From: Escherichia phage EF1-1
DNA: 64,000 nt
Sequence record: PQ571289
Strand: one strand, 5' to 3'
The notes under the pieces were generated by a model. That model was not told the origin of the DNA. It was given only the letters and a program-made list of their open reading frames with translations, and made no database searches. Positions 23,420 through 26,436 of the stretch are shown here, piece after piece. Numbering within the stretch: position 1 is the first letter of the stretch; every line of letters begins with the position of its first letter. Both the position numbers and the translations under genes were made by a program.

Positions 23420-25639
23420 ATGTCAACTACAATTACTAATTTACCAGAAACATCAAAAGTTAATGGTTCAGATTACCTGGTTTTAGATCAACCTGATAAA
23501 ACTGTTAAAAGCACAGTTTCCAACTTTCTTACTGACACTGGGGTGGTTTTAGCCACCCAGTTGAAAGATACAGATGGAGCAGATTTAATACAATCCTCAA
23601 ATGGTAATACTGTTCAGGAAGAGTTGAATAACAATCTTCTTAATGATCGTGAACAGTGGCGTCGTAGTCTTGCTGAGGCAGGGTTAACACTTGTTGATGG
23701 TAGCTTTGAGGAGGGTGCTACATTAAATAATAATACTGATGCTGTCTGGTACATAGCGGGTGCTCAGTGCTACACATGGGGGTCTGGTTTCCCTAAAGAT
23801 GTACCACCTAAATCAACCCCTACATCAACTGGTGGTATTGGCCCTAGTACGTGGGTTAGTGTTTCAAGCAAATCACTACGTCAAGATATCGCGTCAAATT
23901 CTGGTTTTGCTTTGATTGGCCATTGCCCTGGTGTTTCCGCGCTGCGAGGTATTGAGCCTGTTTCTAACGGGCAGAAAATTTTGCTGTCTGGTCACACAGA
24001 GGGTTACAACTACGGCGGCGGCGAGTTCACAGCAGTGTTGGATGGCAGCACGTACACTGACGATAACGGGAACTACATCAAAACAACTGGCGGCGCTGTC
24101 TGGATTCGTGAAAAGAAAACTCACGCGTATGCCGCTGACTATGGTTTCATAACCAACGATGCCAGTAAGGCCACCAGTAATGCTGCCGCTATTGTTGCTG
24201 CGGCAAAGTTTGCCTTTGAAAACGGAACCGATGTTTGGCTGCCTTTTGGCAAGAAATATATTGACGATGTTGTTTTAAATCACCCTGTGACAATCTGCGC
24301 CAACATGACGGTGTTTGGTTCTTCATTGGTAAGCCGTGAACAGGAATCTGATATCTTACATATTGGTAGTGGTTATGCGTTTGATTTCACGCCACAGGTA
24401 AGACCAACAACACCGTCAAGCGAAAATCCTGTTATTGATGGCCCTGCACTAATCGGCCTTTCAATTCGCGGCACAAATAACGGGAAGGCAGGATGGCGCG
24501 TAAACAATTCCACCGTGGTTGGAAATGAAAGCTACGCAAGACGTAACGTGACAATCAAAAACTGTCAGGTTTCCGGTTATCATTCCGGTTACGGTTACGA
24601 AATGTACTGGACGTTCACGAATAAACTCCATGACGTAATTGTGTGGGATTGCGCAGTCACTTATTATATTCGTTCATGCTATGCAACGGATCACTTTGGT
24701 TGCATTTATGAAAATAGTTCTTACGGCTGCCTTGCCATAAACTGCTATTCAAACAATCATTATGGTGGTGCTGTTGAAGGCATCAGATCGATGTCAGCTC
24801 ACACAAAACCGGCAGGTTATGACGAAAACGGTAATTCACCGCTGTCTTATGACGGAATTGGATTCCGTGTTCGCGGTGGTAACACCACATTCTATGGTGG
24901 ATATGTAGAAGCAAACCGCATTCACGCACAGATCGAGAACGCTGGACGATTTGCGTTTAGCGGAACCTATATAAACAACACAAACACAGAAAGAATGGGG
25001 CACGGTATTTCTGGTGAATTGCGTGTTACACACTGCAACATACAAGGTGATCCTTCGATTGGCACATGGGTGCAGGCGTCAGCGTCGCTTCATTGCTCTT
25101 ATGCTGAAATTCACTCAAATGCTTATGTTTCAGGGACTACAAAACCAAACACCGTGCCAAACATTGCGTCTGTTGGTGAGTTCGATGTCTATGATGGAAC
25201 CATTTCTGACAGCAACGGGGCAAGACGTGTTCGCCTCGGTCAGGATTTTCAAACTGGAGGATATCAGACAAACGGTGGTGTGCCGCGCGAAACATACTCT
25301 GAAATATTTGCGACAAGGGTTGTTAATGCTGGTAATGGTTCTGCTGACAGAACGGTTGATATCAGCGCACTTGCCACTGTCACAGGGCAAATAACAGCAC
25401 TTCAAAGCGCTGGGACGCTGACGTTTACAAATACAAATACAGCAATCGCAAAAGAGGGTAGGGATCTGTGTTTTGTTATCAATGCTTCTGGTGCGTGTTC
25501 GTTAGTTTTTGGTTCCGGGTTCCGCATGGTGAGTTCATCACCAATAAGCCTGAAAAACGCTCAAACAGCCGTTATCGAATTTAGATCTCAAGGTAACAAA
25601 TATTATCAAAAAGGGCCTGTAAACATTATGGTGACGTGA
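23420..25639 (+). CDS. Tailspike / tail fibre protein with beta-helix-like C-terminal domain
   Basis: 739 aa; AT-rich N-terminal part then markedly GC-richer C-terminal part with Asn/Gly/Tyr/Cys-rich repeats typical of beta-helical domains. Confidence 0.5.
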   Translation: MSTTITNLPETSKVNGSDYLVLDQPDKTVKSTVSNFLTDTGVVLATQLKDTDGADLIQSSNGNTVQEELNNNLLNDREQWRRSLAEAGLTLVDGSFEEGATLNNNTDAVWYIAGAQCYTWGSGFPKDVPPKSTPTSTGGIGPSTWVSVSSKSLRQDIASNSGFALIGHCPGVSALRGIEPVSNGQKILLSGHTEGYNYGGGEFTAVLDGSTYTDDNGNYIKTTGGAVWIREKKTHAYAADYGFITNDASKATSNAAAIVAAAKFAFENGTDVWLPFGKKYIDDVVLNHPVTICANMTVFGSSLVSREQESDILHIGSGYAFDFTPQVRPTTPSSENPVIDGPALIGLSIRGTNNGKAGWRVNNSTVVGNESYARRNVTIKNCQVSGYHSGYGYEMYWTFTNKLHDVIVWDCAVTYYIRSCYATDHFGCIYENSSYGCLAINCYSNNHYGGAVEGIRSMSAHTKPAGYDENGNSPLSYDGIGFRVRGGNTTFYGGYVEANRIHAQIENAGRFAFSGTYINNTNTERMGHGISGELRVTHCNIQGDPSIGTWVQASASLHCSYAEIHSNAYVSGTTKPNTVPNIASVGEFDVYDGTISDSNGARRVRLGQDFQTGGYQTNGGVPRETYSEIFATRVVNAGNGSADRTVDISALATVTGQITALQSAGTLTFTNTNTAIAKEGRDLCFVINASGACSLVFGSGFRMVSSSPISLKNAQTAVIEFRSQGNKYYQKGPVNIMVT

Positions 25640-25888
25640 TTTTACCATCATGTGAACCGGCACAATTTGTTATCAAAATTTAATTTAGCAGGTACATTGT
25701 GGCATTTATGACGATATGCACTAATTACGGCTTCAAGCGCATGTCATCGCCATGTGATAAAATGATGAAAACATATCGTAGCAGGGTTAATCTTGTCTTT
25801 AGTTACTATCGTACTAACTCAAAGTGTTGTCACTACCACTGCAAGCCCCTCCAAAGAGGGGCTTACTTAGAAAAACAAAGAGGTTGTT

Positions 25889-26197
25889 ATGAACGAAATG
25901 TTCTCCCAAGGTGGTAAAGGTTCAACCGGAATCTTAACCAATAAACAAGCAGTAGCCCGTCACTTTGGAGTTAAACAATCTGAGGCTGTTTACTTCTCAG
26001 TTGGTGTGGATTTGGGTGGGTATAAGGTTATCTATGACAAGGAGACGCAAAGGGCGTATTCCCTACCTACTGATATCGCCCCAGGTATTACTGCCATTAG
26101 TCTTAGTGCTGCTGTACTTGTGCATTCAGCGGGTTCTGTAGACCTTGGGGAATTAGCTGTATATCGTGATTTAAAAAGTAATGAGAACGCACCATGA
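25889..26197 (+). CDS. Hypothetical protein (moron-like insert in tail cluster)
   Basis: 102 aa ORF after a 250-nt non-coding gap and a hairpin, RBS AAGAGG. Confidence 0.3.
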   Translation: MNEMFSQGGKGSTGILTNKQAVARHFGVKQSEAVYFSVGVDLGGYKVIYDKETQRAYSLPTDIAPGITAISLSAAVLVHSAGSVDLGELAVYRDLKSNENAP

Positions 26198-26436
26198 GAA
26201 AGTTTTTAATCGGAATGTTTTGTACTTATCCAAACAACAAAATCAGTTCTACTAAAGTGTGGAACGCACTGGGAATGCTAACCATGACAGGCATGTTTAT
26301 CTTTTTAGGAATAGAAAAAGAAATTCCTGAATGGATGGGTTGGGCTTTTGTTTTCATGATAACTCCTTCTCGCCTCATGAAAAATCTTATTGATTTACGC
26401 TGGGGCAGATCACAATCTACCAAAGAGGATGACTAA
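26194..26436 (+). CDS. Small membrane protein, holin-like
   Basis: 80 aa, two hydrophobic segments and a charged C-terminus 'RSQSTKEDD'. Confidence 0.3.
   Translation: MRKFLIGMFCTYPNNKISSTKVWNALGMLTMTGMFIFLGIEKEIPEWMGWAFVFMITPSRLMKNLIDLRWGRSQSTKEDD

Follow-up and report, generated by a model that had tools for sequence, protein, structure and literature searches.

Gene order at the tailspike locus of phage EF1-1

We analyzed a 64,000-nucleotide (nt) stretch of the genome of Escherichia phage EF1-1 (record PQ571289; hereafter the window, numbered from its first letter) and focused on its tailspike gene and on the non-coding gap and two small open reading frames (ORFs) that follow it. The window comes from a Phapecoctavirus (phAPEC8-like, Stephanstirmvirinae), and all genes of the locus lie on the plus strand. 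A tail protein gene (18373-21249) and the gene of a non-contractile tail sheath protein (21258-23411) precede the 739-amino-acid (aa) tailspike ORF (23420-25639), which is the positional homologue of the 'fiber I' enzymes phAPEC8 gp095 and phi92 gp143; the latter has been described as the distal enzyme of 'fiber I' (PMC13450770). Downstream are a non-coding spacer of 249 nt (25640-25888), a 102-aa ORF (25889-26197), an 80-aa membrane-protein gene (26194-26436; phrog_1322, E = 2e-26) and, from 26436 onward, the baseplate wedge genes. A gap of about 250 nt and two small ORFs behind it, as recorded in a first-pass annotation of this DNA, are indeed present.

Searches with the region 21000-28600 matched 216 phage records, headed by Escherichia phage vB_EcoM-Ro121c4YLVW (98.2% identity), and the matches were always split in two pieces with a query coverage of 65-75%. 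The slot order of sheath gene, tailspike, membrane gene and wedge was kept in the relatives, and synteny and the N-terminal anchor of the protein both identify the slot as the 'fiber I' locus. An independent sample (L038) was 100% identical to the window over 21920-25769 (3,850 bases covered), so that this part of the window is no assembly artefact, and a locus from another genus (L037) reproduced the spacer and the 102-aa ORF at 99.7% identity. Two IMG/VR contigs (L012 and L013; 97 and 153 kb) have the membrane gene directly after the sheath-protein gene and carry no tailspike, so that part of the subfamily can do without the entire tailspike slot.

A conserved anchor, a shared neck and an exchanged body

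The N-terminal anchor of the tailspike (aa 1-54; 23420-23581) is AT-rich, lineage-specific and common to all Stephanstirmvirinae sampled. Identity among relatives was mostly 84-100% over aa 1-51/54 or more, with lower values in three divergent ones, and reached 98% against phAPEC8, whose homology stops at 23580. At the nucleotide level the anchor remained 95-99% identical even between backbones whose sheath genes were 86% identical. The anchor region (23420-23640, aa 1-74) was modelled with very low confidence (predicted local distance difference test, pLDDT, 31-38) and leads into a predicted long helix (aa 65-86); the anchor probably folds only as a trimer or on a virion partner. Behind it, a TD2-type neck (aa 93-149; 23696-23866) matched the Pfam family Tail_spike_N (PF18668) with 53.1 bits (gathering cut-off 25, E = 3.5e-14). 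This neck, the usual left crossover zone, is common to about half of the relatives (to aa ~150-230) and to tailspikes of Ackermannviridae and N4-like phages; where relatives share it, their DNA homology stops at 23835-23863. Its DNA is 72-75% identical to Kuttervirus TSP1 and to the tailspike of phage U1G, its matches in the PDB were 8X8M, 4OJ5 and 5W6H, and CBA120 TSP2 (5W6P) matched the adjoining aa 156-234.

The remainder of the protein (aa ~150-739; 23867-25636) forms a foreign receptor-binding body, predicted to be a right-handed parallel beta-helix depolymerase. No DNA match to the body was found among 50,697 phage records, and tblastn matches were limited to its first ~80 residues at no more than 59.5% identity. 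Its best protein relatives in a large protein database were 56-65% identical and sit behind other anchors, namely in the TSP3 slot of a 158-kb Kuttervirus-like contig, in a myovirus-type prophage and behind a P22-type head-binding domain. The bodies at this locus differed in 21 of 21 sampled relatives, with only aa 1-54 common to all. The AlphaFold2 monomer of the tailspike (pLDDT 70.8) contains a long run of short strands at aa ~280-570, and in Foldseek the body matched CBA120 TSP2 (6W4Q/5W6P, E ~ 3e-13) and TSP4 best, ahead of Klebsiella and Acinetobacter capsule depolymerases (E from 3e-13 to 1e-6, probability 1.0, template modelling [TM] score only ~0.38). On this moderate model (TM ~0.38, pLDDT 70.8) the body falls into the class of parallel beta-helix tailspikes. 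Most likely it binds and cleaves a surface polysaccharide and thereby sets host specificity, and it appears to be a novel tailspike specificity (no protein found exceeded 65% identity) that now occurs in two genera. The earlier proposal of a mosaic tailspike with a horizontally exchanged receptor-binding body is borne out by the limits of homology in the relatives and by the cassette shared with another genus; searched separately, as that proposal had suggested, the N-terminal part (anchor and neck) has relatives and the body has no DNA match.

The same border is visible in base composition. The guanine-plus-cytosine (GC) fraction of the window was 0.394 (standard deviation 0.034 over 300-nt windows), and within the tailspike gene it was 0.396 at 23420-23800 versus 0.458 at 23801-25639 (0.457 in the body). 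The highest 300-nt value of the entire 64 kb (0.513) starts at 23901, inside this gene, and the highest 1.5-kb values (0.459-0.465) lie at 23601-24001, against a mean of 0.395 (standard deviation 0.021). GC at third codon positions (GC3) rose from 0.241 (aa 1-54) through 0.281 (aa 55-150) to 0.402 (aa 151-739), compared with 0.305 +/- 0.042 among 32 other genes with 200 aa or more, and the tailspike gene had the worst codon-usage fit to the genome among the 33 genes of that size. The climb in GC3 from 0.24 to 0.40 lies at synonymous third positions and coincides with the relatives' loss of homology. The non-uniform composition first noticed by eye is thus real by sliding-window GC, GC3 and codon-usage fit, but its onset is at ~23.65-23.75 kb (aa ~80-110) rather than at ~23.9 kb, and the AT-rich part is about the first seventh of the gene, not the first third. 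A second GC-rich stretch (0.45-0.50) is located at 5400-6960; the 333-aa ORF found there (5962-6963) shows the top GC3 value (0.416) and probably encodes a structural protein made at a high level.

The 102-aa ORF as the head of a second tailspike gene

The 102-aa ORF matched residues 1-95 of CBA120 TSP1/ORF210 (PDB 4OJ5, E = 3e-47), with further matches to 4QNL (E = 4e-43) and 5W6F (E = 1e-30) and weaker ones to G7C-type gp66, TSP3 and TSP4. In tailspike PHROGs (phrog_7992, E = 1e-60), the matching part was always the first ~95 residues or an internal equivalent. A word-index protein search with the 102-aa query returned short proteins only; the full-length context came from an exhaustive search of representatives, which gave 181 clusters with TD1, nearly all of them 500-900 aa long and carrying the domain at residues 1-95. 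Against residues 1-94 of CBA120 orf210 the identity was 89.5% (aa) and 86% (nt). Kuttervirus DNA homology spans exactly 25856-26169 (with a start at 25838 in some), at 81-87% identity in full-length matches, and this block corresponds to the hairpin of the tsp2-tsp1 spacer, the ribosome-binding site (RBS) and codons 1-94. Codons 1-94 of the ORF (25889-26170) thus represent the TD1 head domain of a TSP1-type tailspike, which in Ackermannviridae docks TSP1 and TSP3 onto XD3 of TSP2 or TSP4 (PMC11414711). The ORF closes with six codons that are read from the 18-nt leader of the membrane gene (26176-26193), and its TGA stop overlaps the membrane-gene ATG. Phage 3A1_NWU, which lacks the fragment, has aagtaAGGAGaacgcaccATG at the position of this tail, and the leader is accordingly native to the membrane gene.

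Because the ORF is what is left of a second tailspike gene, cut down to its TD1 head (hereafter the relic), it is no independent accessory gene. All 15 Stephanstirmvirinae copies have the same junction, in which ...RD is followed directly by LKSNENA, then P, L or S, and the stop codon, and the relic therefore arose once. The 739-aa protein itself does not have the layout of the TSP1/TSP3 class, with TD1, TD2 and body in one polypeptide, as it carries another anchor and TD1 lies on an ORF 249 nt downstream. NCBIfam returned no match for any of the tailspike, 102-aa and 80-aa proteins. We also considered phage U1G as a second case of a stand-alone TD1 ORF and rejected it, since its 107-aa ORF turned out to be the initial piece of a full-length tailspike with frameshifts. 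In that record (L020; MZ394712.1, 4156-6040), a gp66-type tailspike is broken by frameshifts into at least three ORFs (107, 266 and 177 aa), which reflects either sequencing errors or a pseudogene.

The spacer points to the same origin. The GC hairpin placed by the first-pass annotation at ~25.84 kb is present at 25843-25864 as a perfect 9-bp stem-loop, AAGCCCCTC-CAAA-GAGGGGCTT, and is homologous to the hairpin of the CBA120 tsp2-tsp1 spacer. Perfect GC-rich stems of at least 8 bp occurred seven times in the window versus 0.43 expected in Markov-1 simulations; the other position-checked stems lie no more than ~10 nt from a gene end, and this one lies 204 nt past the tailspike stop codon. A GC-rich stem-loop is found 24-30 nt ahead of the TD1 ATG in every locus, with stems that covary between loci (CCCCTC/GAGGGG, CCCCGC/GCGGGG and GCCCC/GGGGC). 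The homologous hairpin is followed by a T-run in tuntematon, BME3 and iGC, and the copy in the window lacks most of this U-tract: its context fold was -17.9 kcal/mol, the following TACTTAG is a degenerate U-tract, and a terminator scan made no call. From these comparisons, the hairpin appears to be the terminator-type stem-loop of an inter-tailspike spacer, inherited with the TD1 gene head. Over 25694-25888, the spacer is homologous to the one that precedes the TD1-bearing tailspike gene in the N4-like phage U1G, with 87-91% identity at 25694-26041 (spacer and 5' half of TD1), and its part at 25731-25888 is common to ZCKP1, Ro121c4 and PD06. An Rfam search of the spacer gave no family, only sub-threshold chance matches, and a sigma-70 promoter scan gave 10 sites versus 10.0 expected, none of them on the plus strand of the spacer. 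The Shine-Dalgarno sequence AAAGAGG (25877-25883), 5 nt ahead of the relic ATG, would likewise have been inherited with the TD1 gene head, and TAGAAAAACAAAGAGG around it is conserved in the window, Kuttervirus tsp1 and U1G.

The membrane gene as the right-hand border

The 80-aa gene was found in 23 of 23 loci, including those without the relic (phAPEC8, 3A1_NWU) or without a tailspike (L012, L013); its start and stop codons overlap both neighbours, and it is under purifying selection. These features identify it as a core gene of the baseplate module and the right-hand border of the cassette, not an insert. The TD1 ORF varies among relatives and the membrane gene is universal, so that the two small ORFs do not covary as a joint insert would. 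The 80-aa protein had no Pfam match, and its hydropathy profile combines a hydrophobic core (~aa 22-60) with a charged C-terminal end. The BME3 homologue carries the label 'membrane protein-holin' in GenBank, and its length fits that of an 81-residue BME3 protein, not named further, that was reported to show class II holin features (PMC12210895). The Shine-Dalgarno sequence of the membrane gene (26176-26196) is AAGGAG in 3A1_NWU and L025 and AATGAG in the window and most relic-bearing genomes, and ribosome loading on the membrane gene might now be aided by translation of the relic.

Transfer of the cassette between backbones

Locus L037 has a Justusliebigvirus (phi92-like) backbone, with flanks that are 98-99% identical to BME3 and KKE7M and 58-88% identical to the window. 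Over ~23,300-26,201, it was 99.7% identical to the window with 8 mismatches, and mismatches restart at 26202, the third codon of the membrane gene. Within this block, the four differences in the tailspike gene are all synonymous (the proteins are identical), the spacer has none, and the relic has three, which exceeds its share (p = 0.03). Relic and spacer are 93-99% identical between backbones whose membrane genes are at 77%, and the anchor behaves similarly. Both borders are homogenised islands of high identity across divergent backbones; tailspike, spacer and relic therefore travel together. The comparison shows this movement of tailspike, spacer and relic as one unit between backbones, and it places the left crossovers at the end of the sheath gene or in the anchor and the right ones at the start of the membrane gene.

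Crossovers also occurred inside the right-hand border. The 3' 120-150 nt of the relic are 90-100% identical in all copies, and its 5' parts comprise at least four allele types (TSP1-type as in the window, TSP3-type like CBA120 TSP3, and two others) with different switch codons. Homology of the relatives resumes at 25731, 25856, 25867, 25936/25940, 26026, 26039, 26074, 26133, 26167, 26176 or 26211. The mosaic 5' parts would be explained by body swaps that were resolved in the homology of relic and spacer.

Neutral evolution and decay of the relic

We counted de novo variants, defined as those absent from every other allele, inside the closely related TSP1-type relic group, and found 7 nonsynonymous and 1 synonymous. 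A count of 'private substitutions' over all relic copies had been dropped, as it was contaminated by imported divergent alleles. The 7:1 ratio fits neutrality (p = 0.69) and rejects an omega of 0.07 (p = 4e-5) or 0.2 (p = 0.007), and functional Kuttervirus TD1 has an omega of 0.06-0.07; purifying selection as on functional TD1 (omega ~0.06-0.2) was thus not detected in the relic. The same genomes gave nonsynonymous-to-synonymous counts of 23:41 for the membrane gene, 112:173 for the wedge and 4:13 for the anchor (Fisher test versus the relic, p ~ 0.008 each). Statistically, and on small numbers, these data show that the fragment now evolves as a neutral relic.

Several genomes carry damaged copies. 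In Shigella phage SF1-1 (L030, 3243-3549), the relic is frameshifted by 1 nt after codon 65 and annotated as a 70-aa 'tail protein'; UAB_1, L010 and ESCO9 have 5'-deleted relics with 3' remnants only; and in phAPEC8 and 3A1_NWU the relic is absent. Escherichia phage vB_EcoM_01 (L022; PP129558.1, 835-3672) has an uninterrupted tailspike ORF of 945 aa, at which the GenBank record annotates no coding sequence (CDS), and this tailspike ends in ~55 residues that stem from an in-frame fusion with the 3' part of the relic (aa 47-100).

Proposed origin and competing explanations

Taken together, we consider it likely that the locus is a host-range cassette composed of a mosaic tailspike and a co-moving relic of a second tailspike gene, rather than a tail module with a foreign two-gene insert. 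The anchor (aa 1-54) presumably fixes the tailspike to the virion as a phi92-type 'fiber I' enzyme. The downstream piece is the 5' end of a TSP1-type tailspike gene, with its spacer, stem-loop, RBS and first 94 codons, cut at the TD1/TD2 boundary and joined to the 18-nt leader of the membrane gene. The junction may have arisen either by capture of DNA from a tandem-tailspike phage or by a deletion in a second tailspike gene that had once been complete. Capture en bloc, out of a tandem tailspike array, is what we infer rather than observe, because no donor was found and the relatives of the body are only 56-65% identical. Relic and spacer may then have served as the downstream homology arm in which many body swaps were resolved; the mosaicism is observed, and the arm is a proposed role for it. 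A stronger form seems to us rather unlikely: relic and spacer would have been kept as a 'landing pad' that, next to TD2 as the first homology arm, offers another one for the capture of bodies from unrelated phage families with tandem tailspikes. If this were true, selection would act on recombinogenic value and not on the relic protein. In a bolder variant, the 102-aa TD1 peptide is made and may cap a docking site in a branched fibre complex.

Several observations weigh against this interpretation. No donor with contiguous body, spacer and TD1 was found, and the cassettes of the window, L025 and tuntematon matched DNA only from the spacer onward. A TSP3-type relic, as in L025, was expected behind a body of the Kuttervirus TSP4 slot, and this expectation failed: the L025 body is unrelated to any Kuttervirus TSP4, and only its C-terminal chaperone domain has relatives, in podovirus spikes. 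The neutrality test includes just 8 de novo changes, the sample of relatives is skewed to relic-bearing genomes, and the relic ORF is intact in 15 of the 19 relic-bearing loci examined, with a strong RBS and ATGA translational coupling to the next gene, so that it may be expressed, and the peptide or its translation may have a role. The structural assignment of the body comes from a monomer model of moderate quality, and depolymerase activity and receptor are only predicted.

In one alternative, the 102-aa ORF encodes a TD1 protein that functions on its own, perhaps as a small trimeric cap or adaptor at a docking site of the branched receptor-binding complex or as a modulator of tailspike assembly. 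The 15 intact copies keep a length of 101-102 aa despite 63-97% aa divergence, the RBS is inherited, TD1 of Ackermannviridae genuinely serves in docking by binding XD3 of TSP2/TSP4 (PMC11414711), and the phage encodes a gp150-like tailspike with an internal TD1-TD2. However, the de novo changes strike near-invariant positions of the family (V33A, Y49C), frameshifted, 5'-deleted and absent copies occur in viable phages, and recombination with functional alleles brought in most of the divergence among intact copies. Sequence searches of the 1017-aa gp150 homologue revealed no XD3-type docking domain, its match to full-length TSP2 being confined to the TD1 region; the cryo-electron microscopy study of phi92 lists no such component (PMC13450770); and the C-terminal tail of the ORF is merely translated leader. 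We therefore regard a functional TD1 protein as improbable.

Much less probable still is the arrangement originally proposed, in which a moron-like pair of genes, one of them holin-like, was gained independently of the tailspike and breaks the tail module. The PHROG category of the 80-aa family is 'moron, auxiliary metabolic gene and host takeover', the holin label and the class II holin remark for BME3 (PMC12210895) point the same way, and the 102-aa ORF is present in some relatives and missing in others. But the 102-aa ORF is a tailspike fragment, the membrane gene is conserved at all loci, overlaps the start of the wedge gene and is under purifying selection, promoter-like sites do not exceed expectation, and the hairpin lies upstream of the small ORFs and not after them. 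The recently transferred block stops exactly at the membrane-gene start, and the two small ORFs therefore differ in history. A native gene whose GC shift reflects amino-acid composition or expression-linked codon bias, with no horizontal origin, has an equally slim chance: a surely native gene of the major-capsid region (5962-6963) has an even higher GC3, and GC1 and GC2 vary little along the tailspike gene, yet the shift sits at synonymous third positions where the relatives' homology ends, the body differs in all 21 relatives, and the same cassette recurs in another genus at 99.7%. Least probable of all is a split tailspike, in which the 102-aa and 739-aa CDSs are one spike parted by sequencing error, frameshift or programmed recoding. 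The wording of the BME3 paper treats both CDSs as pieces of one tail spike (PMC12210895), and the 107-aa TD1 ORF of U1G truly is the first piece of a frameshifted full-length tailspike. In the window, by contrast, the TD1 ORF lies downstream of a tailspike equipped with an anchor and a stop codon of its own, the two are kept apart by a non-coding spacer (249 nt) that contains the terminator-type hairpin, and TD1 is followed by the membrane gene and not by TD2 or a body; the arrangement also recurs in L038 (identical to 25769) and in L037 (spacer and 102-aa ORF).

Comparison with known tailspike loci

The cassette resembles the tsp4-tsp3-tsp2-tsp1 array of CBA120, where tsp2 lies directly upstream of tsp1, and the window mirrors this order with a TSP2-like body followed by TD1. 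Residues 1-94 of ORF210 TD1, the homologous hairpin and RBS of the tsp2-tsp1 spacer and the TD2 neck in the tailspike are all shared, and the conserved 5' domains of Ackermannviridae tsp genes have been proposed as recombination sites that can be used experimentally (PMC11414711). Unlike in CBA120, the cassette has TD1 and TD2 on separate ORFs, with TD2 and the body preceding TD1 instead of following it, the tailspike sits on a Stephanstirmvirinae-specific anchor, TD1 is truncated and neutral, and no XD3 partner was detected by sequence. The endosialidase locus of phi92 gp143 and phAPEC8 gp095 occupies the same slot with the same N-terminal 54 residues (98% to phAPEC8), whereas the body in the window is entirely different, with no endosialidase and no Peptidase_S74 chaperone, and phAPEC8 has no TD2 neck, spacer or TD1 relic. 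Another counterpart is the gp66-type gene of the N4-like Gamaleyavirus U1G/G7C: the spacer of U1G is also 249 nt long and, with the 5' half of TD1, matches 25694-26041, but TD1 of U1G leads into TD2 and a body in a full gene (frameshifted in the record) and is no relic at a foreign junction.

A conserved N-terminal adaptor with an exchangeable beta-helix depolymerase is also known from P22/Sf6/HK620, Det7, G7C gp66 and Klebsiella depolymerases. The window differs from such general modular exchange in that its downstream border is a pseudogenised tailspike head that travels along and has undergone repeated internal crossovers, an arrangement with no description in the literature searched. The locus is ordinary, well-known phage mosaicism with a new body and leaves the understanding of tailspike evolution unchanged; the TD1 relic as a co-travelling border is undescribed in that literature, in which no earlier account of such a relic was found. 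Its recognition corrects the labels 'tail protein', 'tail spike protein' or 'tail spike protein 3' that dozens of GenBank entries give to the 102-aa ORF, and the treatment of this ORF in one paper as a spike segment, where we find a truncated, neutrally evolving TD1 head. For broad-host-range phages that are therapy candidates, the cassette defines a natural exchange unit, whose borders may be usable in host-range engineering: the sheath-gene end, anchor or TD2 neck on the left, and the spacer, relic or membrane-gene start on the right. The relic also offers a datable footprint of gene flow among Stephanstirmvirinae, Ackermannviridae and N4-like phages.

Other fibre genes and record labels

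Further along the window, a 1017-aa ORF (30521-33574) is the homologue of the phi92 gp150 colanidase (PDB 6E0V, E = 1e-79). It contains an internal TD1-TD2 at aa ~226-372 that is 42% identical to the relic TD1, and because of this internal TD1-TD2 it is built like TSP2/TSP4 of Ackermannviridae, although its N-terminal 225 residues differ. A 674-aa tail fibre (33636-35660) opens with TD2 (aa 12-77) and has collagen repeats, and together with an 890-aa protein with RCC1-like and Big_2 domains (35702-38374) it adds further members to the multi-fibre set. Within the same tail-fibre cluster, a 111-aa lipoprotein gene (30182-30517; phrog_15210, E = 4e-70) with an unusually high GC3 (0.40) looks more moron-like than either small ORF behind the tailspike. 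The host labels of 'Campylobacter phage B15', 'Enterococcus phage Efm 3-10' and 'Klebsiella phage ZCKP1' are doubtful, as these records match Phapecoctavirus or Kuttervirus sequence of the E. coli/Salmonella type near-perfectly.

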